Part shown: piece by piece, positions 1,981-18,514 of the stretch | Layout of the letters: each line of letters starts with the position of its first letter | How positions within the stretch are numbered: position 1 is the stretch's first letter | Assembly: GCA_035382325.1 (NCBI GenBank) | Contig: DAOTAC010000001.1 | Location: 1-25,374 of the forward strand | DNA from: Bacillota bacterium | GTDB taxonomy: Bacteria > Bacillota > DTU025 | Reading direction: 5' to 3' | Length of the DNA stretch: 25,374 bases | The notes under the pieces: generated by a model | Told to the model about the DNA's origin: nothing | The model's database searches: none | What the model saw: the letters and a program-made list of their open reading frames with translations, nothing else | Position numbers and translations under genes: made by a program

Positions 1981-2088
1981 CGTGGGTTGCGCTGGAGACC
2001 GGCGCGAGCCTGCATCCGGGTCCTTCTTGCCACAGTGCGGGTACAATGTAGCAGTACACAAGATCTGGCTGCCGAGGAGGAGATCACA

Positions 2089-2859
2089 ATGACCGTAAAG
2101 AGGGAATTCCCCATATTGGAGTTTGACCCCGCCTCGCCGGCGAAGATCCAGCCTTCCAACATCATCAGAAAACGTAATGTGCCAAAGCATTGCGTGATTA
2201 CGTTTTTCGGTGACGTTATTGGGAGAATGCTTAGTGAGGGAAGACTAAGCAAAATCGCGGAGTTTCATACAGCAACAGTCATATTGCCTATCTATCGCAC
2301 CGAGTATAGCGGAAAACCTATCGGGATTGTGCAGGGTTATCTGGGAGCAGCAGGTTCCGGCGGGCAACTTGAAGAGCTAATCGCCATGGGATTTGAGAGA
2401 TTTATCGTATGTGGTGCTGCCGGGGTATTGCAAAAGGGCGTTCAAGTAGGTCATCTGGTTGTTCCATATTCAGCAATCAGGGACGAAGGCCTTTCATATC
2501 ACTACCTAGAGCCGTCTAGGGAAGTCGAATGTAGCAAGCAAGCGCTGAAATGCATTACCGATTATCTGGAGATCAACCGCATTCCATTCATCAAAGCCAA
2601 AACGTGGACTACCGATGCGTTTTACCGTGAAACAGAAGACAAAATAGCCTTGCGCATTTCTGAGGGATGCGTGACTGTAGAAATGGAAGCCGCAGCATTT
2701 TTCGCAGTATCGAAATTCAGAAATGTTGTGCTCGGACAGATTCTTCATGGCGGAGATGATCTGAGTGGCATTGAATGGGATGCAAGGAATTGGGCGAGTA
2801 GGGAAGACATCAGGGCCAATCTAGTCGATTTGTCCATAGCCATTTGCCTGGAGCTATAG
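2089..2859 (+). CDS. Nucleoside phosphorylase (PNP/UDP phosphorylase family 1, uridine-phosphorylase-like)
   Basis: Start moved from the ORF-track 1987 to ATG 2089, which follows SD GAGGAGG (2074-2080). Motifs LEELIAMG, AIRDEG.SYHY, WTTDAFYRET and VEMEAAA. Two sampled 60-nt blocks are 47% and 43% GC. Confidence 0.88.
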   Translation: MTVKREFPILEFDPASPAKIQPSNIIRKRNVPKHCVITFFGDVIGRMLSEGRLSKIAEFHTATVILPIYRTEYSGKPIGIVQGYLGAAGSGGQLEELIAMGFERFIVCGAAGVLQKGVQVGHLVVPYSAIRDEGLSYHYLEPSREVECSKQALKCITDYLEINRIPFIKAKTWTTDAFYRETEDKIALRISEGCVTVEMEAAAFFAVSKFRNVVLGQILHGGDDLSGIEWDARNWASREDIRANLVDLSIAICLEL

Positions 2860-2972
2860 ATCACCTGATAGCCGTGAAGGGAGAAAAGCCATCGATCAAG
2901 ATTGGCGGCCGGGCACACTCACTCATGCTCCACGGGCTGCATAGGGACGGTCGCGGACTCGCGTACACACGA

Positions 2973-3010
2973 TTAACTTCCCCCCTCATACGTGCTACAT
3001 TATCAATGTA
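2973..3010 (+). promoter_or_regulatory. Candidate sigmaA/70 promoter with an overlapping inverted-repeat operator for the ABC exporter
   Basis: TTAACT (2973-2978), 17 nt spacer, TACATT (2996-3001); each box is a 4/6 match. The -10 box is the left arm of the inverted repeat TACATT-ATC-AATGTA (2996-3010). Confidence 0.4.
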
Positions 3011-3070
3011 TCTATGATTCTGGCCTGCTCAAACAGCTTGTGCTGCCAGTAGCCCCGGGGGGCCGTCTAT

Positions 3071-4801
3071 GTGAAAAGACTTGCGGTATACATGAAGCCT
3101 TACATTGTCTTCTTTCTTGTTGCGCCTGTCTTTAAGGCCATTGAGGCATCGGCTGAACTGCTTCAGCCCAAGATCATGACCACTACGGTGAATGCGGGCA
3201 TCATAGCAGGCGATGTTAGTGTCATCTGGCGAAATGGGCTGCTTATGCTGGGTGTCGCGCTGGTGGGGATTGCGGGCGGCGTCGGTGCATGTTGGTTTGC
3301 CGCCAAGTCGTCGCAGGGGTTCGGCGCTGATCTGCGGCGTGCGGTGTTTCAAAAGGTTCAGAGCTTCTCCTTTTCTGACCTCGACCGGTTCTCCACGGGC
3401 TCACTCGTCACACGTCTCACCAATGACATCACCCAGTTGGAGAATACGTCCCTCATGATGCAGCGGATCATGGTTAGGGCGCCCCTACTCTGCATAGGCG
3501 CGATCATCATGACCATCTCGATCCAGCCTCGTCTTGCTGTGGCGCTTGTGTCAATGGCAGTGGCGCTGCTATGTGCTGTTCTTTTTATTATGGGCCGGGC
3601 GTTTCCCCTGTTCGGCCAGGTGCAGCAGTGCCTGGACGCTGTCAATACTACGATGCAGGAGAACCTTGCCGGGATGCGTACGGTCAAATCGTTCGTCCGA
3701 GCCGGCTTCGAAGTCGAGCGCTTCGACCGCGTCAATGAGCGGCTCTACAACACGAGTGTCGCTGCGGGCAGGGTGATGGCATTTAGCCAGCCTACGGTGT
3801 ATTTCGGTATGAACATTGCGGCCCTGATAGTCCTGTGGCGGGGCGGCCGCCTGGTTGCCGGCCGCGAGATGGAAGTCGGCCAGATCATGGCGGTCATGCA
3901 GTACATCACTCAGATTCTCTTCTCCCTGTCGATGCTTGGATTCCTCCTGATCAACCTGGTCCGGGCCCGCGCGTCGGCCCTTCGCGTCATCGAAGTCCTC
4001 GAAGTAGAGCCCAAGATACGGAGCAGCCCGGAGGCCCGCCGCGATGCGTGTGTCACCCGGGGTGAGGTGGAGTTTCGCAATGTCACGTTTAGGTACCCAG
4101 GCGCCGTCGGAGATCCGGTCCTCAGCGGTGTCTCGTTTCATCTACGCCCCGGCGAGACCCTTGGCGTGCTCGGCGGAACCGGCTCGGGCAAGTCGACACT
4201 TGTCCACTTAATACCGCGTCTGTACGATGTAACGAATGGCCAGCTCCTGGTGGACGGGGTAGATGTGCGCGATTACGTCCTGGAGAGTCTGCGGGCCGGC
4301 ATAGGCATGGTGCTGCAGGACACGGTGCTCTTCTCCGGGACGATAGAGGACAACTTGCGGTGGGGAGCGCCTGACGCGTCCTGCGAAAGCCTTCAAAAGG
4401 CCGCCTCACAGGCACAGGCCACGCAGTTCATCGACAAGATGCCGCTGGGATATGGAAGCCCGATAGGGCAGCGGGGAGCCGGGCTCTCAGGCGGCCAGCG
4501 CCAACGCCTATCCATCGCCCGGGCGCTGGTGAAGAACCCGTCCATACTGATACTCGACGATGCCACCAGCGCAGTCGATACCCGCACTGAAGTAGCATTG
4601 CGCCAGGCACTCCGCGAAGAGCGGCGGGCGGCGACGACAATCATTATAGCCCAGCGCGTGACCAGCGTGATGGGTGCAGACCGGATACTGGTGCTCGAAA
4701 ACGGGCGGGTCTCCGCCATAGGCCGCCACGAGGAGTTGCTTGAGTCCTGCCCCGCGTATCGCGAACTGTGCCGACTTCAGCTGGGAACGGAGGCGGTGTG
4801 A
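3071..4801 (+). CDS. Heterodimeric multidrug-type ABC exporter, subunit 1 (TM287-like, degenerate NBD)
   Basis: N-terminal TMD plus NBD. Walker A GGTGSGKST, signature LSGGQRQR, Walker B ILDDA (Asp replaces the catalytic Glu), switch IIAQR (Gln replaces His). This is the degenerate-site pattern of TM287/LmrC-type subunits. GTG start. Confidence 0.9.
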   Translation: MKRLAVYMKPYIVFFLVAPVFKAIEASAELLQPKIMTTTVNAGIIAGDVSVIWRNGLLMLGVALVGIAGGVGACWFAAKSSQGFGADLRRAVFQKVQSFSFSDLDRFSTGSLVTRLTNDITQLENTSLMMQRIMVRAPLLCIGAIIMTISIQPRLAVALVSMAVALLCAVLFIMGRAFPLFGQVQQCLDAVNTTMQENLAGMRTVKSFVRAGFEVERFDRVNERLYNTSVAAGRVMAFSQPTVYFGMNIAALIVLWRGGRLVAGREMEVGQIMAVMQYITQILFSLSMLGFLLINLVRARASALRVIEVLEVEPKIRSSPEARRDACVTRGEVEFRNVTFRYPGAVGDPVLSGVSFHLRPGETLGVLGGTGSGKSTLVHLIPRLYDVTNGQLLVDGVDVRDYVLESLRAGIGMVLQDTVLFSGTIEDNLRWGAPDASCESLQKAASQAQATQFIDKMPLGYGSPIGQRGAGLSGGQRQRLSIARALVKNPSILILDDATSAVDTRTEVALRQALREERRAATTIIIAQRVTSVMGADRILVLENGRVSAIGRHEELLESCPAYRELCRLQLGTEAV

Positions 4802-4802
4802 G

Positions 4803-6701
4803 ATGAGCGGGAGCACACCTAGGGAAGGCTCTGATCGGCGCCCCGGCGAATTTGGCCCGCAAGTAGGCTCCCAGCTAGGCCCCAGGTTTGGTTCCCGAGC
4901 CAGCCGCCTCGGACCTGTATCGAAACCTAAGGACATTGGGGCCGTCCTGGCTCACCTGTGGGTTTACCTGAGGCAGCAACGACGCACTCTGGCGCTGGTG
5001 TTTGCGGCTACATTAGTCAGCTCGCTAGTATCGATATTTGGGCCTCGTCTTATTGGAACCGCCATTGATCCGTACGTCCTGGACGGCGATCTTCTAGGGC
5101 TGAGCCGGATACTCATCCTCCTTTCTGCGATGTACGCGTCGAGCTCTCTCGCGTCTTGGGTCCAGCAGACCTGCATGGTGGGGTTGTCGAACCGAGCCCT
5201 CCGCGAGATGCGGCACGACCTGTTCGCCAAGGTACAGGCACTTCCCCTGTCTTTTTTCGACAGCGCAACCCATGGCGATCTCATGAGCCGGCTCGCCAAC
5301 GACGTCGATACTGTGGGCATGGCGCTAGGCCAGCCCATCGTTCAGCTCTTTTCGTCGGTGGTAAGCATCTCGGGAACGCTGATCATTATGTTCTCGATGA
5401 GCGTGTGGATGGCACTGACTGTGCTGGCAATGGTCCCGGTGACTTTGCTAGTCACCACCAAGGTGGCGGGCTGGTCAAGGAAGCTCTACAGACGCCGTCA
5501 GGAGGCTCTGGGCGAGATCAACGGATACATCGAAGAGATGGTGACAGGCGCCCGGGTCGTCAAGGTATTCGGCCGTGAGGACGACGCATGCGCCGCATTC
5601 AATGACAAGAGCGAGCGGTTACGGGACATCGCCTACAGGACTGAACTCGTGTCCGGCATGTTCATGCCAGCTATGCACCTGCTCGACAATTTGAGTTTCG
5701 CAGTGGTGGCTCTCATTGGAGCACTGCTGGCAGCGAACGGGATCATTCATCTCGGGATCGTCGCGTCCTTCATAATATACTCGCGCCAGTTCATGCAACC
5801 CGTCCGGGATTTATCGAACCAGTGGAACACCTTTCAGTCCGGCCTGGCAGGCGCGGAGCGCGTGTTCGAGATCATGGATACCGAGTCCGAAGCCGACGCC
5901 CCGGGCGCAAACGACCTGCGTCTGCCGGTTTCGGGCCACGTCGAGTTTGAACGCGTATCGTTTGGCTATAAGCCGGGCGTGCCTGTACTGACCGACATAT
6001 CACTGGAGGCCAAACCGGGTCAGACCATCGCGCTGGTGGGCGCCACAGGCTCAGGAAAGACAACCATCATCAGCTTGCTGTCACGTTTCTACGACATAGA
6101 AGAAGGACACATATACGTAGACGGCGTGGATGTCCGGGAAATCCGCAGGGAATCCCTGCGCCGCGCTCTCGGCATTGTTCTGCAGGACTCCCAGCTCTTT
6201 TCGGGGACCGTGCGGGAGAACATACGCTACGGGCGCCCGGACGCCTCCGACGCCGATGTCGAAAAAGCCGCGGAGCTGGCGCTTGCGGATCCGTTCATTC
6301 GTCGAATGCCTGAAGGCTACGATTCTGTGCTCACCGCCGACGGAGGCAATCTCAGCCACGGACAGCGCCAGTTGCTCTGCATCGCCCGCGCAGTGCTGGC
6401 AGACCCGGCCATACTCATACTCGACGAAGCTACCTCGAGTGTGGACACCCGGACCGAACTGAGGATACAGCAAGCCATCCTCCGGTTGATGCGTGGCCGC
6501 ACGAGTTTCGTCATCGCACACCGACTGTCCACCATTCAAGGCGCCGACCAGATACTCGTCATCGACCACGGCCGCATAGTCGAGCGCGGCGCCCATGACG
6601 AGTTGCTGGCCAGGGGCGGCGCATACGCCCGGCTCCATGAAAGCCAGTTCCACGTCGCTGCGCAGCCCGCAATGGGTCATGGCATATTTGAGTCAGTGTA
6701 G
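4803..6701 (+). CDS. Heterodimeric multidrug-type ABC exporter, subunit 2 (TM288-like, consensus NBD)
   Basis: ATG 4803 follows SD GGAGG and the upstream stop. Gly/Pro-rich N-terminus, then TMD, Walker A GATGSGKTT, non-canonical signature LSHGQRQ, Walker B ILDEA and switch IAHR. Confidence 0.9.
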   Translation: MSGSTPREGSDRRPGEFGPQVGSQLGPRFGSRASRLGPVSKPKDIGAVLAHLWVYLRQQRRTLALVFAATLVSSLVSIFGPRLIGTAIDPYVLDGDLLGLSRILILLSAMYASSSLASWVQQTCMVGLSNRALREMRHDLFAKVQALPLSFFDSATHGDLMSRLANDVDTVGMALGQPIVQLFSSVVSISGTLIIMFSMSVWMALTVLAMVPVTLLVTTKVAGWSRKLYRRRQEALGEINGYIEEMVTGARVVKVFGREDDACAAFNDKSERLRDIAYRTELVSGMFMPAMHLLDNLSFAVVALIGALLAANGIIHLGIVASFIIYSRQFMQPVRDLSNQWNTFQSGLAGAERVFEIMDTESEADAPGANDLRLPVSGHVEFERVSFGYKPGVPVLTDISLEAKPGQTIALVGATGSGKTTIISLLSRFYDIEEGHIYVDGVDVREIRRESLRRALGIVLQDSQLFSGTVRENIRYGRPDASDADVEKAAELALADPFIRRMPEGYDSVLTADGGNLSHGQRQLLCIARAVLADPAILILDEATSSVDTRTELRIQQAILRLMRGRTSFVIAHRLSTIQGADQILVIDHGRIVERGAHDELLARGGAYARLHESQFHVAAQPAMGHGIFESV

Positions 6702-6734
6702 CGACACAAGCCGCGGCACTTGCTGAGCAGGGCT

Positions 6735-7012
6735 TTGCGCGACCGTATGGAAAATCGTACGGCCTTTCCACCAGCCTGATGGAAAACCAGACGGTTCGGC
6801 ACGGCCGGGCCAAATCGGGGGAGGATTGGGGATCGCAGGGCCCTAGGGTGGCGGTTCGCCACGGCCTGCTATCAAGGCGCCGTGTCCTTATGCCGGTTCT
6901 AGCTGCGCATTCGATAATCACTAATAGTCTGGAAAAGAGGAGCCCTACTGTCGGTTGCGTTCGGAGAAGCCCATGTGTTCAGAACCGTTGGGTTTCCCAT
7001 ACGGTCTCGCAA
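6735..7012. repeat. Three-copy imperfect repeat (two direct, one inverted) between convergent operons
   Basis: Copy A 6735-6762 ttgcgcgaccgtatggaaaatcgtacgg; copy B 6779-6797 atggaaaaccagacggttc; copy C 6982-7012, whose reverse complement is ttgcgagaccgtatgggaaacccaacggttc. A vs rc(C) 23/28 identical; B vs rc(C) 16/19. Confidence 0.6.
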
Positions 7013-7165
7013 GAAGCGGTGCGGAAAACCAACAGGTGGTGGGGCTGGCTGGCAAACACAGGGGAACTGCAGGTACAGCCCGCCTTTGCCAGATGAACTG
7101 CCATGATTCGAGGAGACTGCGAGGTACTTGAAGGCAGGATCCGTGAGGAGCTTGACAACATCGGA

Positions 7166-8752
7166 TCATCCCTGAAGACTGAGGGCGGCGTTGTCAGCAT
7201 TGGCGTCGGCGTCGGCGCCGGCGGGCCTATTCGCCCCTGCCATGAGCAGCCCGAGTTCCTCCAGCGAGACGCTGTCGGCCTCCACGACGGCGACTATTTT
7301 GCCTTCGTAGATCACAGCTATCCTATCAGACAAGTTGAGGATTTCGTCTAGTTCCTCCGAAATGAGGAGTATCCCGCCTCCCGAGTCGCGCACGTCGAGC
7401 AGGCGTCGGTGGACGTACTCGGTGGCCGCGATATCCAGGCCGCGCGTGGGATAGCACGCTAGCAACACAGCAGGCTTCCGCGTTATGTCGCGGGCTAGGA
7501 TAACCTTCTGGATGTTGCCTCCCGATAGGCTGCCGGCGCGCGTTTCTACGCTGGGGGTCCTGACATCAAACGTCTCCACGGTCTTGCGCGACCAGTTCCG
7601 GATCACGTCGTTCTGCAGGAAAATCCAGCGGGCGAATGGAGGCCTATGGTGGTCTTTGAGAATCAGATTCTCCTCTACCGAAAACGACTGGATGATGCCG
7701 AAACTGAGCCTATCTTCCGGTACGTAGCCGAGACCGGCGTCGATCATCGCTGCCGGCGAAGCGCCGGTAAGGTCATGGCCGCGCAGGCGCACTTTGCCGC
7801 GACTCACCCGGCGAAGGCCGGTCATGATCTCAGCCAGTTCTCTCTGGCCATTGCCAGACACTCCGGCAAGCCCCAGGATCTCACCTTCCCGCACCGCAAG
7901 CGATAGGCCCTTCAGTGCAGGGAGGCCATTGTCGGCGTCGGCCCAGACTTGGTCCAGTTCCAACACGGGTTGCCCGTGCGAGGCTTCTCCAGTGCGCTTG
8001 GCAGCTTCAATCTTGCGTCCTACCATCATCGTCGCCAAGGACTCCGGGCTGGCCTGTGAGGTCGGCACGGTTCCGACCACAGCGCCTGCCCGGAGCACTG
8101 TTACGCGGTCGCTTACCGCCATGACTTCGTTCATCTTGTGGCTTATGAAGACCAGTGACTTCCCGGCCTGGGCCATTCCGCGGAGTATGGCTATGAGCTC
8201 GCCCGCCTCCTGCGGCGTCAGCACCGCAGTGGGTTCGTCTAGGATGAGCAACTCGGCGCCGCGGTACAGCGCTTTGATGATCTCTACGCGCTGTTGCTCG
8301 CCCACCGACAACTGCCATACGGGCGCGTCGGGCCTGATTCTGAAACCGTATTCGTCGCCCAGCTCCACAATGCGCTGTGACGCGGTGTCGAGATCGAGAA
8401 GGGGGCCTCTCGCCGATTGCAGGCCGAGCACGACGTTTTCGACCACAGTGAGGCTGGGGACGAGCATGAAGTGCTGGTGTACCATGCCGATGCCCAGGGC
8501 TATAGCATCACGCGGAGAGTTGATCGTCACTGCCTCTCCGTTGACCAGTATCTGCCCGGAGTCGGGTCGATACAGCCCGTATAGCACTTTCATCAACGTG
8601 GTCTTGCCCGCGCCGTTCTCGCCTAGAAGCGCAAGCACCTCACCGGAGTTGATATCGAGGTCAACGCAATCGTTGGCCCGAACCCCGGGGAAGGTCTTCG
8701 TTATCTGGCGCATCTTCACGTGTTTGATGCGAGGCCCCGATGTCGATCCCAT
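7166..8752 (-). CDS. Nucleoside/sugar ABC importer ATP-binding protein, tandem NBD (CUT2 family, NupO/YufO-like)
   Basis: ATG at 8752 follows SD GAGGAG. Walker A GENGAGKTT, GMVHQHF, LSVGEQQRVEI, ILDEPT; second NBD has LSGGNIQK and ISEELDE. Confidence 0.9.
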   Translation of the reverse strand: MGSTSGPRIKHVKMRQITKTFPGVRANDCVDLDINSGEVLALLGENGAGKTTLMKVLYGLYRPDSGQILVNGEAVTINSPRDAIALGIGMVHQHFMLVPSLTVVENVVLGLQSARGPLLDLDTASQRIVELGDEYGFRIRPDAPVWQLSVGEQQRVEIIKALYRGAELLILDEPTAVLTPQEAGELIAILRGMAQAGKSLVFISHKMNEVMAVSDRVTVLRAGAVVGTVPTSQASPESLATMMVGRKIEAAKRTGEASHGQPVLELDQVWADADNGLPALKGLSLAVREGEILGLAGVSGNGQRELAEIMTGLRRVSRGKVRLRGHDLTGASPAAMIDAGLGYVPEDRLSFGIIQSFSVEENLILKDHHRPPFARWIFLQNDVIRNWSRKTVETFDVRTPSVETRAGSLSGGNIQKVILARDITRKPAVLLACYPTRGLDIAATEYVHRRLLDVRDSGGGILLISEELDEILNLSDRIAVIYEGKIVAVVEADSVSLEELGLLMAGANRPAGADADANADNAALSLQG

Positions 8753-8826
8753 GAATATCGCACTCCTCAACCGCTTGCTGGGCTACTAGAACCGCCTGCT
8801 GAGCTACTGCAACCGCTTACCGGATA

Positions 8827-9837
8827 TTACTTGCCTCCAGCCTTGGGCAGTTCCACTTTGAGCTTGCCGGAGATGATGTCTTGCTTGGCCTTCTCTACGC
8901 GGTCAAGCACGGCCTTGGGTATCTTGTTTGTTAGTTTCGGGTTGAAACGCAGCTCCAGGGTACCGTCGGCAAAGGTCAGCGTAAGGTGTTTTCCGCCCAG
9001 GATTCCCTGGGCACGATAGTTGATCATATCCTTGACGACTTTCTCCCAGTGGTACACCTGCGCCGCGAGAACATGATCGGGCGCGAGGGAAGCCTGGTCC
9101 ATGTCGGTGGACATCCAGTACACGCCGGACCTTTCGGCCACTGCGCGAGCGGCTCCCACTGCCTGCTGAGACGATCCCGTCAGCACGTCGGCTTTGGCGT
9201 CCATGTGGACCTTAGCTAGCTCGCCGGCGCCGACTATGTCGCCGAAAGAACCGGTGTAGGCTATGCGCACTTTCACATTGGGATTCCCCGCAGCCACGCC
9301 TTGCTGGAAGCCGTAGTTATACTTGATCGCATCACCCGACTCCACCGGGCCGACGATTCCCACAACGCCTGTCTTTGACATCAAGGCGGCGACCATGCCG
9401 AGAAGATACGCGCCCTCCTGGGCCTGGGGGTCGTATGCGAAAATGTTGGGCGCGGTGGTGAACCCGGTTCCATAGGCGAAAGTGGTCTTGGGGAAGTCGG
9501 GAGCAAGTTCCATGAGCACGCTCTGATACTGAGCGCCATGAGCGATAATGATGTCGAATCCCTGGTCAGCATATTGCCGGATTGCGGCGCCCGCGTCCAC
9601 AGGGTTGCCCATCCGTTCGCTCGTAACAAACTCCAGCTTGTCGGCGCCCATCTCCTTCTGGACAGCCTTGAGTCCTTCGTACATCGACTGGCTCCATGCC
9701 ATGTCGTCGATGGTGCTCGCCATGAGCATGGCGATGCGGATCTTCTTAGCGGGGGCGCCGTAGCCGTAGCCCGCCCCGAAGACCATGAGTGTCGCCAAAG
9801 CTAGAAACGCTACGAGAACTATGCGGTTTTTCCTCAC
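8827..9837 (-). CDS. BMP-family (BmpA/NupN/PnrA-like) substrate-binding protein
   Basis: GTG start at 9837 follows SD GGAGGTG. Signal peptide MRKNRIVLVAFLALATLMVFGA; motifs DMAWSQSMYEG, DIIIAHG, EGAYLLGMVAA and YTGSFGD. No lipobox Cys. Confidence 0.88.
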   Translation of the reverse strand: MRKNRIVLVAFLALATLMVFGAGYGYGAPAKKIRIAMLMASTIDDMAWSQSMYEGLKAVQKEMGADKLEFVTSERMGNPVDAGAAIRQYADQGFDIIIAHGAQYQSVLMELAPDFPKTTFAYGTGFTTAPNIFAYDPQAQEGAYLLGMVAALMSKTGVVGIVGPVESGDAIKYNYGFQQGVAAGNPNVKVRIAYTGSFGDIVGAGELAKVHMDAKADVLTGSSQQAVGAARAVAERSGVYWMSTDMDQASLAPDHVLAAQVYHWEKVVKDMINYRAQGILGGKHLTLTFADGTLELRFNPKLTNKIPKAVLDRVEKAKQDIISGKLKVELPKAGGK

Positions 9838-9863
9838 AGTAGACACCTCCTGACGTATTTGTG

Positions 9864-9887
9864 CGTCGACCGCCGCGGCTGTCGACG
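9864..9887 (-). other. Intercistronic GC-rich hairpin upstream of the substrate-binding protein gene
   Basis: On the minus strand: cgtcgac-a-gccgcggc-g-gtcgacg (7-bp outer stem, self-complementary core), no U-tract. Confidence 0.45.
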
Positions 9888-9921
9888 ACGACACCGCCTG
9901 ATCCGCCCCAACCTCGATCGG

Positions 9922-10854
9922 CTAGCCAGCTTCCCTTCGGAACGGCTTGCCGAGGGCGGTTGGGGCCCACACTCGCCTGACAGCTACTGCCAGAGCTGCG
10001 ATGGTCATGACATATGGCAGTATCACTGCGAACTCGTATGGGAAACTGATGCCGAGCACCTGAATCCATAATTGGAGTGCGTTCATCATGCTGAAGAGGA
10101 GCGAGCCAAGAAGGATGCCCACAGGGCTCCACCTGCCGAAATACACCAGGGCGACGGCGATGAAACCGCGGCCTGCGGTGATGTTATCGGCGTACATGTT
10201 AGCCTGACCAACAGTCAGGAAGGCCCCGGCAAGCCCGGCCATGGCGCCTCCCAGCACCACACACTGATATCGGATGGCGTTGACGTTGACGCCCAATGTG
10301 TCGGCGGCTTGCGGTGTGGTGCCCACTGCGCGCACCTTGAGCCCCCAGGTTGTGCGGTACAGCACAAACCAGGATACCGGAACGAGCAACAACGAGAAGT
10401 AGACCATCCAGTTGTGCTGGAACAGCACAGGGCCGAGAAACGGGATCTTCGACAGTACCGGGATGTTCCATGGGCCGAAACCCTTACATGATGTGATGAA
10501 CCCGAGATACACTCGGAAAAGCAGCCCTGACAGGCCCCAGCAGAACATGTGTAGGCCAATGCCGGAGATGCCTTGTTCGGCCTGCATGGTAACGCTGATG
10601 AAGGCCATGAGCAGGCCTAATGCAGCTCCGACTCCGATTGCGGCCAGCACGCCGAGCCACGGACTGCCGGTGCCCAGCGAGGTCATGAATCCTGCGAAGG
10701 CTCCCATCATCATGATGCCTTCGAGCCCGAGGTTAAACACCCCGGAGCGCTGCGCGAACATTTCGCCCAGCGACGCATAGAGGAATGGTGCAGCGAGCCT
10801 GATCCCGGTAGCAAGTATCCCGACGATTATCCCTTGGCTTGAGATAGTGGCCAT
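9922..10854 (-). CDS. Nucleoside ABC importer permease 2 (NupQ/YufQ-like)
   Basis: Hydrophobic protein with A.LGEMFAQRSGVFNLGLEGIM, GLKVRAVG.TP.AA.TLG, AGRGFIAVALV.FGRW and LPYVMTI.AL. Confidence 0.9.
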   Translation of the reverse strand: MATISSQGIIVGILATGIRLAAPFLYASLGEMFAQRSGVFNLGLEGIMMMGAFAGFMTSLGTGSPWLGVLAAIGVGAALGLLMAFISVTMQAEQGISGIGLHMFCWGLSGLLFRVYLGFITSCKGFGPWNIPVLSKIPFLGPVLFQHNWMVYFSLLLVPVSWFVLYRTTWGLKVRAVGTTPQAADTLGVNVNAIRYQCVVLGGAMAGLAGAFLTVGQANMYADNITAGRGFIAVALVYFGRWSPVGILLGSLLFSMMNALQLWIQVLGISFPYEFAVILPYVMTIAALAVAVRRVWAPTALGKPFRREAG

Positions 10855-10855
10855 A

Positions 10856-11992
10856 TCAGTTGCTCACCCCCTTGCCCTGCCTTGCCATACCCTGCTTTCC
10901 CGCAACGCCTGCTGAGCCGCCTGACATCCGGCGGCTACGGAGTAGATCGGGCCTGCGGATGAGCAAGTCGCTTCCGACCACGAATAGCACAACTAGCCCC
11001 TGTATGGCCATGACGATGGCGGCCGGTATCTGCACCGCCCTCTGCATCATGTCGGCGCCCAGAGTGAGCGCGCCGAAGAGTATGGAAGCTGGGATGCAGC
11101 CTAGGGGATGAAGGCGCCCGAACAGCGCGACCACGATTCCGCTGAAGCCGTAACCGCCGGAGAGCCCTTCGAGGACCCTGTGATGCACGCCAAGCACTTC
11201 TACGATTCCAGCCAGCCCCGCGAAGCCTCCCGCAAAGGCCATGGCAAGTATTTGGTAGTTTTCAACCCTGATTCCAGCGGCTTTTGCAGCCTGAGGGCCG
11301 GCGCCTGAGGCGCGCATCCGGTAGCCGATTGTGGTGCGCCAAAGGAAGATGTAGACCAGTATCGCGAAGGCGATGGCGATCACCAGTCCCCAGTGAAACC
11401 GTGTGCCGCGAATGATCCGGGGAAGCCAGATCGATCTGGGCAGCAGAGCTGTTTGGGGACACCCGGTGCCGTAGGCCACTTCCTGTGGGTCGATCATCGG
11501 ACCGCGGATCAGGTAGAGGTTGAGTTGGAAGGCGATTTGGTTGAGCATTACGGTGCTGAGTATCTCGTTCACCGAAAGCCGGGCCTTGAGCCAGCCGGCA
11601 ATTCCGCCCCATAATGCCCCCGCGAGCACACCCGCGATTAGCGTCATGGGCAGCAGCACTATTGCAGGCCAACTCGGAAAAGCCAGGGCAACAGCTGCGC
11701 CTGCCAGCGAACCGGCGACCATCTGCCCCTCGCCCCCGATGTTGAGGATTCCGCTCCTGAACGAGATGACGATTCCGAGGCCTACCAGGAGAAGTGGTGT
11801 AGCCTTTACCAGGCTTTCGGTGATGCCGTATTTGCCGCTGACCGGCCCGGTGAACATCGCTTTGTATGCAGTGATGGGATTCGCGCGAGCCAGCAGGATC
11901 AGCCCCGCTCCAACCAAGAGTGCCAGAACCAGAGCCCCGACCAGCACGCCAGCTTGTAGAAGGGAGTCGGACGTGCCCGTACGTTTCTTCAT
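10856..11992 (-). CDS. Nucleoside ABC importer permease 1 (NupP/YufP-like)
   Basis: ATG at 11992 follows SD AAAGGAG. Motifs SGILNIGGEGQ, NEILSTVMLN, TTIGYRMRA.G, GYGFSGIVVALFGRLHP. Confidence 0.9.
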   Translation of the reverse strand: MKKRTGTSDSLLQAGVLVGALVLALLVGAGLILLARANPITAYKAMFTGPVSGKYGITESLVKATPLLLVGLGIVISFRSGILNIGGEGQMVAGSLAGAAVALAFPSWPAIVLLPMTLIAGVLAGALWGGIAGWLKARLSVNEILSTVMLNQIAFQLNLYLIRGPMIDPQEVAYGTGCPQTALLPRSIWLPRIIRGTRFHWGLVIAIAFAILVYIFLWRTTIGYRMRASGAGPQAAKAAGIRVENYQILAMAFAGGFAGLAGIVEVLGVHHRVLEGLSGGYGFSGIVVALFGRLHPLGCIPASILFGALTLGADMMQRAVQIPAAIVMAIQGLVVLFVVGSDLLIRRPDLLRSRRMSGGSAGVAGKQGMARQGKGVSN

Positions 11993-12305
11993 GACACCTG
12001 CTCCTTTAGATAACACGCGTCGATTCCAATGGCAGAAGATATATCATATGAATAGAGGATTCTAGGCAAGGCACACTTATCCTGCCTTGAGCACAACTAA
12101 TAGATACGAAGGAAATCCATTGTTTACGGCCCATGCAGGTAATCCTGCTTTGTCGCGGGGTCTTGCACTTGCACGGGAGAGCATCGCCGGCATTCATACA
12201 GAGGCCCAGGAAATGCAAGTTCAACTATGATACTCTTATGCTGAGCGCTGCGAGGTTTACGGTATCGGCAGGGGCCGAGTGGATTCCAAGACAGGTGGGT
12301 CGTCG

Positions 12306-13856
12306 ATGAGTTCTTTGGAACGTAGTATCAGCATACTCAAGGATGCTTTCCCGGAGGCATTCACCGAGGGAAGGATCGATTTCGATATTCTGCGCGGGTT
12401 GCTTGGCGTTTGTGTGGATGATCGGCACGAGCGCTATCGCCTCACCTGGAACGGCAAGGGCCGTGCCCGACGCATTGCCCAGGCCCCTTCGGTCGGGGCG
12501 CTCCAGCCGAGCCCTGAGGAGTCGGTCGATTGGGATACGACTCAGAATCTCCTGATCGAAGGGGACAACCTGGAGGTTCTGAAGCTACTGCTCAACGAGT
12601 ATCAGGGGAAGATCAAGATGATCTACATCGACCCTCCATACAACACGGGCAACGATTTCATATACCGCGACGACTTCCGCGACAGCGTCGCAAGCTATCT
12701 CCAGCTGACCGGACAGGCCGACGCTAGTGGGCGCCTGCTGCGAGCCGACGCGGAAACCTCGGGCAGGTACCATACTGACTGGCTGAACATGATGTACCCG
12801 CGCCTCAAGCTCGCGCGCAACTTGCTTTGCGAGGACGGTGTTATCTTCATCTCCATCGGCGACAATGAAGTGGCGAACCTCAGGATTATCTGCGATGAGT
12901 TGTTCGGGGAGGGCAGCTGCCTAGGCTGTGTGGCTCGCGTGGCCAAGAAGACGTCGAACAAGGGCACTCACTTTGCGCCGTCCAAAGACTATGTGCTGGT
13001 CTACGCCTGCAGAGCCGAATGTGTCGCTCCTTTCATGGACGTAGTAGACCCTGCGTACGCTTCGCGTTTCAGGGAGCGCGACGGGCGAGGTCGGTACGCC
13101 ACGGTCGGTCTGTACCAGGCGGCTCTCGACCCGCGTCCCAATCAGCGATACTGGATCGCCTGCCCCGACGGGTCGTTCGCCATCCCTCCCGGCGAAGTCT
13201 TTCCTGATGAAGTTGCCGATGGGGCTCAGGTAAAGCCGGCAAGTCGCCGCGACCGGGTGTGGCGCTGGAGCCGCGAGTCGTACCTTGCGAAGAAGCATCT
13301 TCTGGTCTTCAAGAAGTCCGCTCGTAGCCCTCTCGTGACGCCCGACGGGTCGCCGTCGAAATGGAATGTCTACACCAAATACTATCTTGAGGACAGACTG
13401 AATGACGGGATTCGCCCCCGCGACTACCTTGACGACATCACTAACGATCTGGGCACGGCCGCCCTCAAGAGCCTGGGGCTCGACGATTTCTTCGAGTTTG
13501 CCAAACCTCCGGAGCTGGTGCGGCGGCTGATGCAGTGGCTGGGCGGACGCGATGGCATTTACCTCGACTTCTTCGCAGGTTCAGGAACGACGGCCCAGGC
13601 GGTCCTGGAGCAGAATGCGGAGGATGGCGGCAGCCGTCGGTTCATCCTGGTTCAATTGCCTGAGCCCTGCCCTCATGACTCAGTGGCAGCCCAGAATGGT
13701 TACAACACAATCTTCGACATCTGCAAAGAGCGCATCCGACGGGTGATCGCACGCCTGCGCGCCGACGAGGCGCATGGCACCGCGCTCGACTTGGGATACC
13801 GCGTTTTCAAGCTGCGAGGTGAAGCAGTTGAAGATCAAGTTCGACCCAGATCTTGA
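12306..13856 (+). CDS. mod: Type III R-M adenine methyltransferase Mod, copy 1 (lacks the C-terminal domain)
   Basis: FPEAFTEGRIDFD N-terminal segment, IEGDNLEVLKLL, motif IV IDPPYNTG, WLNMMYPRL, variable TRD region, KP motif, motif I DFFAGSGTT (beta-class order), FILVQLPE. Ends 13 residues after LDLGYRVFKL. Start could alternatively be GTG 12279. Confidence 0.9.
   Translation: MSSLERSISILKDAFPEAFTEGRIDFDILRGLLGVCVDDRHERYRLTWNGKGRARRIAQAPSVGALQPSPEESVDWDTTQNLLIEGDNLEVLKLLLNEYQGKIKMIYIDPPYNTGNDFIYRDDFRDSVASYLQLTGQADASGRLLRADAETSGRYHTDWLNMMYPRLKLARNLLCEDGVIFISIGDNEVANLRIICDELFGEGSCLGCVARVAKKTSNKGTHFAPSKDYVLVYACRAECVAPFMDVVDPAYASRFRERDGRGRYATVGLYQAALDPRPNQRYWIACPDGSFAIPPGEVFPDEVADGAQVKPASRRDRVWRWSRESYLAKKHLLVFKKSARSPLVTPDGSPSKWNVYTKYYLEDRLNDGIRPRDYLDDITNDLGTAALKSLGLDDFFEFAKPPELVRRLMQWLGGRDGIYLDFFAGSGTTAQAVLEQNAEDGGSRRFILVQLPEPCPHDSVAAQNGYNTIFDICKERIRRVIARLRADEAHGTALDLGYRVFKLRGEAVEDQVRPRS
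12429..12915 (+). repeat. Direct repeat copy 1 (mod1 MTase N-terminal half), homologous to 16139-16625
   Basis: Gap-free at constant offset 3710. Identical runs: tcacctggaacggcaag (12442/16152), aagatgatctacatcgaccc (12615/16325), actggctgaacatgatgta (12778/16488). Two sampled 60-nt blocks are 41/60 and 48/60 identical. Confidence 0.85.
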
Positions 13857-16116
13857 CTATCAGCGCGATGCGATCGACTCGGTTGTTCAGATCTTTGCGG
13901 GTCAGGAAGACTGCCGGGCCGACTTCGCGGGCGATCTGGTCATCGGGAACCGTCTCCGCTTATCAGAGGAAGAGATACTGAAGAATGTGAGGGCCATTCA
14001 GCTTTGCAATGGGCTAGCTCTGTCTGATACGGTTTCCGGCATGAACTTCACTGTGGAGATGGAGACGGGCACCGGCAAGACATATGTCTACTTGAGGACC
14101 ATTTTCGAGCTCAACCGGGAATACGGGTTTCTCAAATTCATAATTGTCGTGCCGTCTATCGCGATCAAGGAAGGGGTCGCGAAGTCGCTCCAGATGGTCG
14201 AGGAGCATATGCGCGGGCTGTATGATAACGTTCGGTTTGACCACTTCATCTACGATCCCGCCAGCCTCAGTCAGGTGCGGAACTTCGCCACGAGCGACTA
14301 CATACAGATCATGATCATCAACATCGATGCATTCCGCAAGAGCTTCGTCGACCCAGAAAAAGAGCATAGGGCCAACATCATCCATCGTTCGCACGACCGG
14401 ATGATGGGCGCTCGCCCAATCGAGTTCATCCAGGGCACGAGCCCGATCGTCATCATTGATGAACCGCAGAGCGTAGATACGACGGCCAAAAGCGCTGAGG
14501 CCATAGCGTCGCTTCATCCGCTGTGCACCCTGCGGTACTCCGCCACCCACGTGGAGAGGCACAACATGATGTACAGGTTGGATCCGGTCGATGCGTACCA
14601 GCGCAAGCTGGTCAAGCAGGTTGAGGTGGCAAGTGTCGAGGCAAGCCACGGGCCGAGCAGGCCGTATGTGAGGCTACTGGGTGTAGACAACACAAGAGGT
14701 TCGATCACTGCCAGGATTGAGCTGGATGCGCTGCACAGGGGTGGCGCGGTCAGGCGCGTGGCCAGATCCGTCCGCTGCGGCGACGACCTGCAGGAGGTCT
14801 CGGGCAGTCGGGATGTCTACACCGGCTACATCGTCGAGAATATCTGCTGTGAGAGGGGTAATGAGCACATCATGCTCGCCCGATGGCCTGAGGCTGTGCG
14901 GCTGAACCAGCCTATCGGTGATCTAGACGATGGCGAGTACAAGCGCATTCAGATACGGACTACCATCCGGGAGCACCTGGACAAGGAATTGATGCTCCGG
15001 CCAAGGGGCGTCAAGGTGCTCAGCTTGTTCTTTATCGATCGGGTCGCCAACTACCGTTGGTACGACGAGGACGGCAATCCGCGTAAGGGCAAGTATGCGC
15101 AGATGTTCGAGGAGGAGTACGTAAAGGCGATGGGCGACGTTAAGTACCGTTCGCTGCCGGAAGGGGCTGACCCGGCGGCTGCGGCTGAGAGCGTGCACAA
15201 CGGGTATTTCGCCATCGACAGGAGAAGGGACGCGGCAGGCCGGGATATGTTCAGGGAGTCGCGGGGCGATGGTGTTGCGCAGGCCGACGAGAGCGCGTAC
15301 CAGCTGATCATGAGGGACAAGGAGAAGCTGGCAAGCTTCGAGTCTGGGCTGAAGTTCATCTTCTCTCACTCAGCTCTCAGGGAGGGCTGGGATAATCCCA
15401 ACGTGTTTCAGATCTGCACGCTGAACGACACGGTCTCTGCGATGAAGAAAAGGCAGGAGATAGGGCGCGGTCTGCGCCTTGCCGTGAACCAGGACGGCGA
15501 GCGGGTTTACGGCTTCGATGTGAACACCTTGACTGTCGTGGCCAACCAGTCATATGCGGAGTTCGTCCGGCAGCTGCAGAGCGAGATCGAAGAGGATACA
15601 GGGGTCCGACTGGGCGAAGCGCGTCGGCTCAATGTCAAGAACGCGGCCGAACGGAGGCAAGTCGGACCGGGCGGGTCGAATGGTGTCGGCACAAGCCCAG
15701 AGCCGGGGCCGAAGCAGGAGTGCAACACTGGGTATCGTGTGACATTCGATACAGATGAGCTGATTAGGCGGTGCGCCGGCGAAATCCGGCGGATGCCGGC
15801 GATAGATCACACGGGACCTATGATACGGAAAGCGCGACTCGGGATGGGTCGCGGCGGGATCGGGGCAGGAGACGTTCGCGTCAGCGCCGAGATACATGAG
15901 GCTCATGGTCATCCGTTGCCCGACATAGTGACCCAGTTGCAGAACGATACCTCCCTAACCCGGCGCACGATTGTGAAAATCCTGGTGCAAAGTGGAAGGC
16001 TTGAGGACTTCAAGGCCGGCCCGCAGGTGTTCATAGAGAAGGTGTCGGCGATTATCCGGCGCCGGGTGGGGCTGTGCATTCAGGAGGGCGGGACACATGC
16101 AGGGACTGGATCCTAG
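13828..16116 (+). CDS. res: Type III R-M Res-family helicase/ATPase lacking the C-terminal endonuclease domain
   Basis: TTG 13828 lies 6 nt after SD GAGGTG and gives the family-type start MKIKFDPDLDYQ (GTG 13819 is an alternative). Motifs EMETGTGKTYVYLRTIFEL, IIDEPQ, RYSAT, SALREGWDNPNVFQIC and QEIGRGLR are intact. The protein ends shortly after LTRRTIVKIL...PQVFIEKV, with no PD-(D/E)xK-type motif. Confidence 0.88.
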   Translation: MKIKFDPDLDYQRDAIDSVVQIFAGQEDCRADFAGDLVIGNRLRLSEEEILKNVRAIQLCNGLALSDTVSGMNFTVEMETGTGKTYVYLRTIFELNREYGFLKFIIVVPSIAIKEGVAKSLQMVEEHMRGLYDNVRFDHFIYDPASLSQVRNFATSDYIQIMIINIDAFRKSFVDPEKEHRANIIHRSHDRMMGARPIEFIQGTSPIVIIDEPQSVDTTAKSAEAIASLHPLCTLRYSATHVERHNMMYRLDPVDAYQRKLVKQVEVASVEASHGPSRPYVRLLGVDNTRGSITARIELDALHRGGAVRRVARSVRCGDDLQEVSGSRDVYTGYIVENICCERGNEHIMLARWPEAVRLNQPIGDLDDGEYKRIQIRTTIREHLDKELMLRPRGVKVLSLFFIDRVANYRWYDEDGNPRKGKYAQMFEEEYVKAMGDVKYRSLPEGADPAAAAESVHNGYFAIDRRRDAAGRDMFRESRGDGVAQADESAYQLIMRDKEKLASFESGLKFIFSHSALREGWDNPNVFQICTLNDTVSAMKKRQEIGRGLRLAVNQDGERVYGFDVNTLTVVANQSYAEFVRQLQSEIEEDTGVRLGEARRLNVKNAAERRQVGPGGSNGVGTSPEPGPKQECNTGYRVTFDTDELIRRCAGEIRRMPAIDHTGPMIRKARLGMGRGGIGAGDVRVSAEIHEAHGHPLPDIVTQLQNDTSLTRRTIVKILVQSGRLEDFKAGPQVFIEKVSAIIRRRVGLCIQEGGTHAGTGS

Positions 16117-17968
16117 TATCGGCCAAAGCCTGGGGTCGGAGAGATACAGCTTCACCTGGAACGGCAAGCGCCGCGCCGGACTTATTGCTCAAGCGCCGCC
16201 CGACGGCACGCTCCGTCCTTGCCCCGAGCAGTCAGTCAATTGGGATACGACGCGCAACCTCTTCATCGAAGGTGACAACCTGGAAGTCCTCAAGTTGCTG
16301 CAGAAGTCTTATCACAAGAAAGTGAAGATGATCTACATCGACCCGCCTTACAATACGGGTAAGGATTTTGTGTACCGCGATGACTTCACAGACAGTATCC
16401 AAAACTACTTGAGATTGACGGGGCAGGTGGATGAGGCGGGGCGTCGCCTCTCGGCCAACCCTGAAACATGCGGCCGCTATCATACTAACTGGCTGAACAT
16501 GATGTATCCCCGGATGAGGTTGGCGAGAAACCTCCTGCGAGACGACGGGGTGATCGCCATTTCCATTGATGACCATGAACTGGCCAACCTGCGGAAGATG
16601 TGTGACGAGGTGTTCGGCGAGGAGAATTTCTGCGGTGTGTTCATCTGGGAGAAGAAGAAGAAGCCTTTGTTTCTGGACGCCAACATGGGCACTGTGACCG
16701 AGTACATAATCTGCTTCGCCAAAAACCGGGCACAGTCGCCGCCCTTTGGTGCCGGCGCTGCCCGGGAGGGGAAGAAGTACCCGTTCAACAATGCGGGCAA
16801 CGGCGTTCAGACCCTGACGTTTCCGGCCGGGAGTGTGCGGTTCGGCTTCGGTGATCAGGTGGTGGCGGCTCAGGACATGTCGGAGGGCAGCATCTTCACT
16901 GAACTGCTGGATGATGTGGCGATTGTGGGCGGGCGGAACGCCAATGCATTCCGCCTGAGGGGCGAGTGGCGATACTCCCAGCAGAAGCTGGACGAGTTTG
17001 TGCAGGAAGGCGCAGACATCGTCATAAGCAAGATCCCGTTCAGGCCAAACTATGTCAGCCGTTCGGGCGAGCTGAAGAAGACTTCGAATCTGCTGTCATA
17101 CCGCACCAACGGCGTGCCCACGTATGAGGATGCGACGCAGGAGATCCGAGCCCTTTTCGGGGCCGATGTGATGAGCTACCCCAAGCCCAGCGGGTTGATG
17201 AAGTACCTTGTACGTGCTATGACGGGCGAAGGCGACATCGTCATGGACTTCTTCGCGGGATCCGGGAGCACCGCACACGGCGTCATGCTCCAAAACAGCG
17301 AAGATGGCTACAATCGCCAGTACATACTGGTGCAACTGCCGGAACCTCTGAAGCCTGATGATGCCGAGAGCGGGCCGGCCTTCGAGTTCTGCCGGGCACA
17401 CGGCTTGAGCCCTACAATCGCCGAAATCGGAAAGGAGAGAATCCGACGGGCCGCCACGGCCGCCGCGGCGGGCGCGGTGGAGCGGGGGGCCCTTGGGCTT
17501 GGCCCTGAGTTTGGTCCTGGTCTTGGCGCTGGCCGTGGCTCAGGTCTTGACCTGGGGTTTAGAGTCTTCAGGCTTGACAGCAGCAACCTTTGGCCGTGGG
17601 ACTCGGACCCCCGGAATCTCGAGGAGTCCCTGCTGCAGGCGGTGGAGCGGATCAAGGACGATCGACAAGAGGCAGACGTCCTATACGAGTTGGTGATCCA
17701 GTACGGGCTGGATCTCGCGGCGTCCGTCGAAAGGCGGGAGATCGACGGCAAGGCAGTCTATATAGTGGGTGAGGGCGAACTGGTGGTATGCCTTGCCGAT
17801 CATATCAGCTCGAGACTTGCTCTCGGCATTGCGCGACTCCGCGCGGAGCTTGCGGCGGCCCAGATGCAGGTGGTGCTCAGGGACGCAGGCTTCGACAGCG
17901 ATGCCGACAGAATCAACACCATACAGGTTCTGCGCGGGGCGGGGGTTGAAAGCGCAAAGACGCTGTGA
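16097..17968 (+). CDS. mod: Type III R-M adenine methyltransferase Mod, copy 2 (short N-terminus, C-terminal domain present)
   Basis: ATG 16097 follows SD AGGAGGG inside res (20-nt overlap). ERYSFTWNGK starts at residue 15, then IEGDNLEVLKLL, IDPPYNTG, a TRD unrelated to mod1, YPKP, DFFAGSGST, and the C-terminal domain from LDSSNL...LYEL...GLDL to VVLRDAGF. Confidence 0.92.
   Translation: MQGLDPSIGQSLGSERYSFTWNGKRRAGLIAQAPPDGTLRPCPEQSVNWDTTRNLFIEGDNLEVLKLLQKSYHKKVKMIYIDPPYNTGKDFVYRDDFTDSIQNYLRLTGQVDEAGRRLSANPETCGRYHTNWLNMMYPRMRLARNLLRDDGVIAISIDDHELANLRKMCDEVFGEENFCGVFIWEKKKKPLFLDANMGTVTEYIICFAKNRAQSPPFGAGAAREGKKYPFNNAGNGVQTLTFPAGSVRFGFGDQVVAAQDMSEGSIFTELLDDVAIVGGRNANAFRLRGEWRYSQQKLDEFVQEGADIVISKIPFRPNYVSRSGELKKTSNLLSYRTNGVPTYEDATQEIRALFGADVMSYPKPSGLMKYLVRAMTGEGDIVMDFFAGSGSTAHGVMLQNSEDGYNRQYILVQLPEPLKPDDAESGPAFEFCRAHGLSPTIAEIGKERIRRAATAAAAGAVERGALGLGPEFGPGLGAGRGSGLDLGFRVFRLDSSNLWPWDSDPRNLEESLLQAVERIKDDRQEADVLYELVIQYGLDLAASVERREIDGKAVYIVGEGELVVCLADHISSRLALGIARLRAELAAAQMQVVLRDAGFDSDADRINTIQVLRGAGVESAKTL
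16139..16625 (+). repeat. Direct repeat copy 2 (mod2 MTase N-terminal half), homologous to 12429-12915
   Basis: Same gap-free alignment at offset 3710 as described for copy 1. Confidence 0.85.
17495..17548 (+). repeat. Degenerate in-frame hexamer tandem repeat in mod2 (Gly-X linker)
   Basis: gggctt ggccct gagttt ggtcct ggtctt ggcgct ggccgt ggctca ggtctt, encoding GLGPEFGPGLGAGRGSGL. Confidence 0.65.
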
Positions 17969-18052: not shown

Positions 18053-18514
18053 GTGAAAATGCAGGATTTCTCGGATTCCGCAAAGTACCAGTGCGGGCAC
18101 CCGATGGCCAAGATCCTTGCCGACCACTGTGATCCTTGCGGCCGTCCCGTTGCCGTGGAATTCTCATGCGGCGACTGTTCCAAGAAGGCTCTTAACGCCA
18201 AGGTAAAGGATATTTGCGCCGGGTTGCTTATCCTGACGCCCTTCGACGCAGGGGGCATCGACATCAAGGTATTCTGTGGAGGCGCGCTGGTAGAGAGAGA
18301 GACGGCGCAGGTGGTGGTCATTCCTCTGGAACGGGTGTGCGCTGTGGAGGTGGGGGCTCGCGAGGTGGACGGATGTCCTCCGTGTCCTCCCTGCCCGCCG
18401 CCATGTTCTGCGTGTCCACCATGTCCACCGTGTCCGCCTTGCCCTCCCTGTCCGCCATGCCCTTCGAACGGGCGACCTCCGACGACCGGGCCGGTGAGCA
18501 CTGGGCCGTCCTAA
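18053..18514 (+). CDS. Small cysteine-rich protein with (Cys-Pro-Pro)n tail; candidate spore coat/exosporium structural protein
   Basis: SD GAGAGGTG precedes GTG 18053/ATG 18059. 18 Cys in 153 aa. The N-terminal domain has HCxxC and CxxC; the tail is CPPCPPCPPPCSACPPCPPCPPCPPCPPCP. Function is inference. Confidence 0.75.
   Translation: MKMQDFSDSAKYQCGHPMAKILADHCDPCGRPVAVEFSCGDCSKKALNAKVKDICAGLLILTPFDAGGIDIKVFCGGALVERETAQVVVIPLERVCAVEVGAREVDGCPPCPPCPPPCSACPPCPPCPPCPPCPPCPSNGRPPTTGPVSTGPS
18374..18463 (+). repeat. 9-nt-period coding repeat TGY-CCN-CCN (10 Cys units)
   Basis: tgtcctccg tgtcctccc tgcccgccg cca tgttctgcg tgtccacca tgtccaccg tgtccgcct tgccctccc tgtccgcca tgccct. Units differ almost only at synonymous positions. 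Confidence 0.9.

Follow-up and report, generated by a model that had tools for sequence, protein, structure and literature searches.

A type III Res protein without a nuclease domain, encoded between two unlike Mod genes in a Bacillota bacterium

To our knowledge, the sole role assigned to the ATPase of type III restriction-modification enzymes is the licensing of cleavage after one-dimensional diffusion. In the structure of EcoP15I, the C-terminal domain (CTD) of one Mod subunit, ModA, contacts Res extensively and that of the other, ModB, is solvent-exposed; the site is read by ModA and the adenine is methylated by ModB, and the Mod2 dimer of two identical Mods is a functional stand-alone methyltransferase (MTase) (PMC4490356). 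The type III systems of the Haemophilus and Neisseria phasevarions have kept Mod and lost the endonuclease domain of Res, which has been read as a move away from restriction and towards epigenetic function (Fox et al. 2007, PMC1976455). Here we describe a type III locus of three same-strand genes, mod1-res-mod2, in which a Res protein without its nuclease domain is encoded between two different Mods. The window, that is, the whole stretch of DNA analyzed (25,374 nucleotides), is the entire 25.4-kb contig DAOTAC010000001.1 of a 2.28-Mb metagenome-assembled genome (MAG), 84% complete, of a Bacillota bacterium (GCA_035382325.1) whose source habitat is sludge and anaerobic digesters. The three genes are flanked by an ABC/Bmp transporter operon and a MASE3-PAS-GGDEF-HD sensor gene.

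Domain content of Res and its origin

The res gene (13828-16116, forward strand) encodes 762 aa from a TTG start at 13828, which is preceded by a GAGGTG Shine-Dalgarno sequence inside mod1 and agrees with the N-terminus of all homologues and with the database protein P0007 (762 aa); an in-frame ATG lies upstream at 13774. The only Pfam matches of the protein are ResIII/DEAD. Its match to NCBIfam PRK15483 covers profile positions 2-592 of 986, with a score (260) below the cut-off (564), and that to PADLOC REase_III covers positions 1-595 of 989. An earlier note, made from the letters of this DNA, had claimed that the endonuclease domain is absent, and the searches bear this out: no match to the endonuclease family PF19778 was found in the protein (Pfam, E<=10) or anywhere in the 84%-complete genome, and alignments to full-length relatives end before the domain. 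The note had advised inspecting the last 150 aa for a nuclease fold; a search of the last 173 residues (aa 590-762) returned no Pfam family at E<=10, and no second Res copy was found in the MAG. Of the features expected of a type III Res (NF012027 / PADLOC REase_III), the superfamily 2 (SF2) helicase core and an adjacent co-oriented Mod (here one on each side) are present, and the PF19778 endonuclease is missing. The sole solved structure related by sequence is EcoP15I Res (4ZCF chain C; E=1e-56), which is also the best fold match overall of the AlphaFold2 (AF2) model (4zcf_C, E=2e-24). The model is moderate (predicted local distance difference test, pLDDT, 64.8; predicted template modeling score, pTM, 0.51); disorder and secondary structure were taken from it, domain packing was not.

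Res retains a complete SF2 ATPase (RecA1, Pin-like insert and RecA2) together with the distal half of the helical spacer. RecA1 (aa 1-270; 13828..14637) carries the Walker A motif METGTGKTY and motif II, IIDEPQ. It is followed by a beta-rich insertion between the RecA domains (aa 271-365; 14638..14922), the counterpart of the EcoP15I Pin region, whose position was set by homology to EcoP15I (PMC4490356) and in which the AF2 strands span residues 264-359. RecA2 (aa 366-597; 14923..15618) contains motif V, REGWDNPNVFQIC, and motif VI, QEIGRGLRL. Helicase motifs I, II, III, V and VI, as well as every residue that is invariant in 53 homologues, are all present. Beyond RecA2 lies a linker (aa 598-640; 15619..15747), and residues 590-639 are predicted to be disordered (AF2 pLDDT < 50). 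The remainder of the protein (aa 641-762; 15748..16116) is a remnant of the distal spacer. Residues 642-753, whose homologue in full-length relatives is the distal helical spacer, comprise one helix, a beta-hairpin and a further four helices, including LPDIVTQLQNDTSLTRRTIV. The stop codon follows three residues past the point at which those relatives run on into the nuclease arm.

The nearest full-length relatives are ~1000 aa long, bear PF19778 and are 62-69% identical to Res across the first 600 residues. Compared with them, Res lacks the entire "nuclease arm": a segment of the proximal spacer, one helix of the spacer and the PD-(D/E)xK domain. A segment of 78 aa is gone directly after ...EIEEDTGVRLGE, with the junction near 15618/15619 at the end of RecA2; this closely matches the ~80 aa given in the earlier note. 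The conserved spacer helix VKLNKAxxxxxFxxLWxRIKYxT is swapped for the Gly/Pro linker GPGGSNGVGTSPEPGPKQE, and the alignment places this replacement, also proposed in the note, at exactly 15664-15720. At the C-terminus, the loss that the note had put at ~170 residues is real but smaller, ~145 residues by alignment, and includes the whole of PF19778 (YNPDW...VETKG; residues 885-990 of P0016). An additional 26-aa gap after ...CRADFA (near 13927-13932) falls in a loop of variable length in the family, which is short in EcoP15I too. The 78-aa segment is also missing from a subfamily of 880-920 aa that keeps the nuclease domain; its absence alone is therefore uninformative on cutting.

The truncated end of Res is not an assembly artefact. 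The junction of the res stop and the mod2 start is crossed, with 0 differences and no indels, by contigs from independent DNA runs belonging to different studies and by contigs from two metatranscriptome runs. The res and mod2 genes are covered at 100% identity by metatranscriptome contigs, a hint of transcription at most given possible DNA in the library.

Among 1.8 billion representatives, a homologue search turned up two more complete Res proteins with the same end point, P0129 (742 aa) and P0130 (749 aa). Each gene lies immediately downstream of a single full-length Mod in housekeeping surroundings, and the loci hold only mod and res; a chemoreceptor gene adjoins one locus and redox genes adjoin the other. 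The nearest relatives of P0129 and P0130 are full-length enzymes of ~985-990 aa belonging to other groups (61% and 69% identity), and relative to these both proteins have lost, cleanly and in frame, the ~78-aa segment, the spacer helix and the nuclease end, just as the window Res has. A tblastn search downstream of the two genes found no nuclease relics. The clade of the window Res is sister to the 1000-aa proteins P0016/P0090 (support 100/100). A single origin of all short Res proteins is disfavored, with an approximately unbiased (AU) test giving p=0.03 against monophyly and each C-terminal remnant resembling its own full-length relative. These comparisons suggest that the three lost elements would constitute one structural arm, removed as a unit when cutting was abandoned, and that the remaining spacer would belong to the motor and Mod-binding core.

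Other candidates were set aside. P0133, P0156 and P0158 (730-765 aa) retain the 78-aa segment and end mid-spacer, and were treated as fragments; the 679-aa neighbor of P0129, considered as a nuclease partner acting in trans, is the chemoreceptor. Separately, P0424 (918 aa), P0459 (824 aa) and P0469 (840 aa), from Bacillaceae-type lineages, have no precomputed PF19778 match and may be either nuclease losses or gene fragments.

Selection on Res and its loss within the genus

The short form of Res is found in eight further protein clusters (756-774 aa; 77-82% identity over 98% of the length), and all deletions are common to them. In L001, L003, G008 and G011, mod1-res-mod2 occupies the same chromosomal slot beside the MASE3-GGDEF-HD sensor gene. 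The short Res occurs in this slot in at least 4 congeneric species. Downstream synteny, comprising the GGDEF sensor, MFS and radical SAM genes, is kept, including in L003. On the upstream side, the ABC/Bmp transporter operon is present in the window, L001 and G007, and L003 differs (1-8400, compared with 1-12000 of the window), with PadR/DUF2812 and unknown genes in the place of that operon.

The ratio of nonsynonymous to synonymous substitution rates (dN/dS) was calculated pairwise by the Nei-Gojobori method for four species-level lineages, with the near-identical L003-G008 pair (dS 0.008, uninformative) excluded. For the whole res gene dN/dS is 0.20-0.24 (bootstrap 95% intervals 0.15-0.28), for the ATPase core 0.14, and for the flanking GGDEF and MFS genes it is 0.10-0.17. 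Within Res, the values are lowest in RecA2 (0.10-0.17) and RecA1 (0.14-0.19) and reach 0.22-0.42 across aa 271-400, 0.29-0.39 in the C-terminal remnant and 0.43-1.06 in the replaced linker, which also carries indels between species. The trimmed res, and above all its ATPase, is clearly under purifying selection, and the linker drifts freely. Since dS of res (about 0.5; range 0.29-0.61) lies in the same range as that of the two flanking genes, the cassette has been inherited vertically together with its flanks.

Both Mods are encoded in all six species of the genus; neither Res nor the Mod pair was found in any other genus of the class, for which the collection holds only 21 genomes. Three of the six congeners (G007, G009 and G010) lack Res and keep both Mods. 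In G007 and G010 the same locus contains intact mod1 and mod2 genes that abut or overlap, with no res. Mod2 of these two species ends just after ...GFRVFML and has no CTD, and Mod1 of G007 has lost its N-terminal domain (NTD) too. In both species, Mod2 (L014 8284-11074 in G007; L016 2876-5783 in G010) also has a ~30-aa internal deletion after DPPY (junction YPDD/ADWLNMMYPR). The Mod2 proteins of G007 and G010 and Mod1 of G007 are minimal proteins of MTase core and target recognition domain (TRD), with their frames still intact.

In G009, two contigs (L017, the tail of C188, and L015, the head of C73) with a 55-nt overlap join mod1 to a full mod2 across a scar in which two pieces of res survive: 49 nt encoding motif V (window 15369-15417) and the final 68 nt of the gene (16049-16116). 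These scars indicate that res was once present in the G009 lineage and has since been deleted. The trees of Mod1 and Mod2 are congruent, (G007,G010) | ((window,G009),(L001,L003)), and this topology makes the G009 loss recent and independent of the state in G007 and G010. The Mod2 CTD is gone in G007 and G010 but still present in G009, where Res loss is recent; CTD loss that tracks the absence of Res is what a contact between the two would predict. One possible source of the 55-nt contig overlap, at the region matching window 13820-16048, is a branch in the assembly graph where Res-plus and Res-minus strains part. In a DNA run from an anaerobic digester (X14), a diverged haplotype carries a Res-less joint, 13819->16137, that skips 2317 nt; its depth is ~7, against ~25 for the Res-bearing form, showing that Res-less relatives coexist with the window organism. 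The two-Mod methylase is therefore the constant core of the locus, and the trimmed Res is selectively maintained where present, yet dispensable. The suggestion in the earlier note that selection favored a nuclease-free ATPase gains support from the conservation of the short form across species, the low dN/dS and the convergent clean losses, with the qualification that Res can be dispensed with.

Two incomplete Mods and the proposed mechanism

Both Mods of the window are beta-class type III N6-adenine MTases with DPPY (motif IV) and FxGxG (motif I) in the order typical of the class, and neither has the complete four-domain NTD-MTase-TRD-CTD architecture. They were compared with EcoP15I Mod, a second solved Mod (PDB 6K0W) and the canonical Mods beside full-length Res relatives, which carry both NTD and CTD. 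Mod1 (12279..13856, forward strand; an ATG at 12306 is a possible alternative start) has the NTD, the MTase core (IDPPYNTG, DFFAGSGTT) and TRD1, and ends right after ...GYRVFKL, so that there is no CTD. Mod2 (16097..17968, forward strand) begins at the equivalent of EcoP15I residue ~51 and hence lacks the NTD; its MTase core is accompanied by a TRD2 that differs from TRD1 and by a complete CTD. Accordingly, Mod1 matches positions 8-501 and Mod2 positions 54-617 of PADLOC MTase_III (621 positions). Identity between the two proteins is 41% overall and rises to ~70% in the N-terminal MTase half, with no relationship between their TRDs. Overall dN/dS is 0.15-0.20 for Mod1 (TRD 0.06-0.10) and 0.11-0.21 for Mod2 (CTD 0.29-0.63); both TRDs are strongly conserved (0.06-0.13).

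The ATG of mod2 lies 20 nt before the end of the res stop in the +1 frame (overlap 16097-16116), and this overlap is kept wherever gene calls exist (window, L001 and L003). A +1 shift within it would yield a Res-Mod2 fusion; no slippery motif was seen. Just before the CTD, Mod2 contains a Gly/Pro-rich insertion, GALGLGPEFGPGLGAGRGSG, encoded by an imperfect repeat with a 12-nt period (~5 copies; window 17488-17549), which is absent in L001 and L003 (623 vs 604 aa). The repeats found were weak, imperfect and low in copy number, with no simple-sequence tract of the kind used in phase variation. Between mod2 and the GGDEF sensor gene, an open reading frame (ORF) at 18053-18514, likewise considered as a partner in trans, encodes a Cys-rich, low-complexity protein with no Pfam match, and the gene at this position varies in length (67 aa in L001, 117 aa in L003). 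Matches in a promoter and terminator scan were at the level of shuffled sequence and were not used.

We consider it probable that the locus is a de-weaponized type III system: its adenine methyltransferase would be made up of two Mods and would be partnered by a DNA motor that is ATP-driven, nuclease-free and optional. In the mechanism we propose, Mod1 and Mod2 would form a heterodimer that associates with Res, making permanent the division of labor seen in the EcoP15I Mod homodimer. By analogy with EcoP15I, Mod2, with the CTD that serves there to dock Res, would occupy the place of ModA, where it would read the site and hold Res; Mod1, having no CTD, would stand in for ModB as the subunit that methylates the flipped adenine. 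The complex would bind its site and methylate one adenine. At unmethylated sites, Res would hydrolyze ATP and shift the complex to a sliding state like that of EcoP15I; without a nuclease, the outcome would be release and scanning instead of cleavage, and the motor might contribute, for example, to turnover or scanning. Given its retention in all species of the genus, the Mod pair would be the core function, and the motor an accessory that is useful yet dispensable. More tentatively, the locus may reveal a type III motor whose job does not involve cleavage: Mod1/Mod2/Res(delta-nuclease) would be a sliding adenine methyltransferase, gated by ATP and loaded at its site, with a hard-wired reader and writer, a "motor without blade" that evolved at least three times by removal of one arm of Res.

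Several observations weigh against this proposal. A single crystal structure supplies the analogy on which both the heterodimer and the roles given to its subunits are based, and DPPY and FxGxG are intact in both Mods, so that neither is visibly a non-catalytic reader. The C-terminal remnant of Res and the CTD of Mod2 evolve faster (dN/dS 0.3-0.6) than the cores; taken with the loss of Res in 3/6 congeners, this indicates that the contribution of the motor may be small. At 84% completeness, the MAG leaves room for a nuclease encoded elsewhere, and the RNA evidence consists of contigs from metatranscriptome libraries, which may contain DNA.

It is also conceivable, though in our judgment unlikely, that Res binds only a Mod2 homodimer through the CTD and that Mod1 is a separate methyltransferase with its own specificity, giving two independent methylases plus a motor and no heterotrimer. 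Unrelated yet strongly conserved TRDs would fit two real specificities, the catalytic motifs are complete in both proteins, and a Mod2 dimer of EcoP15I is active as a stand-alone MTase (PMC4490356). However, the domain losses of the two Mods are complementary, their trees are congruent, and both genes are retained in 6/6 species and become translationally overlapped once res is deleted. In EcoP15I, moreover, the TRD of ModB is conserved as well, through its role in protein contacts.

Two further explanations concern Res itself, and we regard each as improbable. Purifying selection on the ATPase is strong enough to call for an ATP-dependent function, and that function could still be restriction, with a nuclease supplied in trans by a partner missed in the incomplete MAG, or with foreign DNA blocked without cleavage, as by BREX. 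Against this stand the lack of a PF19778 match in the genome and of any conserved neighbor gene beyond housekeeping synteny (the upstream genes differ in L003), the convergent P0129 and P0130 loci with just mod and res, and the repeated loss of Res; vertical inheritance with stable TRDs is also unlike an arms-race defense locus. Conversely, Res could be a functionless remnant heading for loss, its frame intact by chance or by hitch-hiking on mod expression. Such decay would agree with the absence of Res from three congeners, at least one by a recent independent deletion, with the Res-less haplotype (joint 13819->16137) in the digester sample and with relaxed constraint in the linker, the C-terminal remnant and the Mod2 CTD. 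It is difficult to reconcile with a 2.3-kb ORF that is intact in four species-level lineages and eight protein clusters at dS ~0.3-0.6, with dN/dS of 0.10-0.19 in the RecA domains and a bootstrap upper bound of 0.28 for the whole gene, with helicase motifs that are all invariant, or with clean in-frame trimming that recurs convergently in two other lineages.

Significance and comparison with known systems

A nuclease-free Res whose motor is under purifying selection amounts to a natural separation-of-function allele, present in several species here and with the same trimming in two other lineages, and offers a direct way to probe the part that the motor plays in methylation or DNA scanning. 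The complementary losses of the two Mods match the ModA/ModB asymmetry of EcoP15I; should the heterodimer prove true, it would provide a natural test of the "one reads, other writes" model for beta-class methyltransferases. The locus also illustrates the stepwise domestication of a selfish restriction-modification system within one genus, with stages, seen or inferred, that comprise a full system, a nuclease-free system, a two-Mod methylase and minimal Mods.

The nearest full-length relatives of the window Res occur in SNF2-DUF4391-Mod-Res cassettes (L005 1985-11006; L006 1-10997), with which it shares a Res ATPase region of 62-69% identity. These cassettes differ in having one full-length Mod, a ~1000-aa Res with PF19778, and the SNF2 and DUF4391 genes, none of which is found in the window: upstream of mod1, SNF2 and DUF4391 are absent and the syntenic neighbors are ABC transporter, Bmp and permease genes. 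Unlike the cassettes, the window locus is flanked by ABC-transporter and signaling genes. In L006, AbiEi/AbiEii and a Bro-N gene are inserted between the core genes, and a GmrSD-like gene lies downstream.

With EcoP15I and EcoP1I (Mod2Res1-2; PDB 4ZCF), the window system shares the SF2 motor, the Pin-type insertion, beta-class N6-adenine Mods with DPPY, and adjacent, translationally coupled genes. It differs from them in a Res that lacks the PD-(D/E)xK domain and half of the helical spacer, and in having around res two unlike Mod genes rather than one, each without one of the four Mod domains. The heterodimer METTL3/METTL14 is a beta-class MTase pair with a division of labor, cited in the EcoP15I paper (PMC4490356). 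By analogy only, the proposed logic is the same, one subunit binding or recognizing the substrate and the other catalyzing; in contrast, both window Mods keep their catalytic motifs, and the window heterodimer is a proposal.

In our literature search, which surfaced only the EcoP15I structure and phasevarion papers, no description of a mod-res-mod arrangement or of a conserved nuclease-free Res was found. Loss of the Res nuclease by frameshift is already known from phasevarions; a conserved, in-frame nuclease-free Res between two Mods was not found described. The phasevarion cases are strain-level frameshifts with a truncated, presumably dead Res and phase-variable repeats in mod (PMC1976455), whereas the system in the window combines in-frame trimming of Res that is shared across species and maintained under purifying selection with two Mods that carry no simple-repeat tract.

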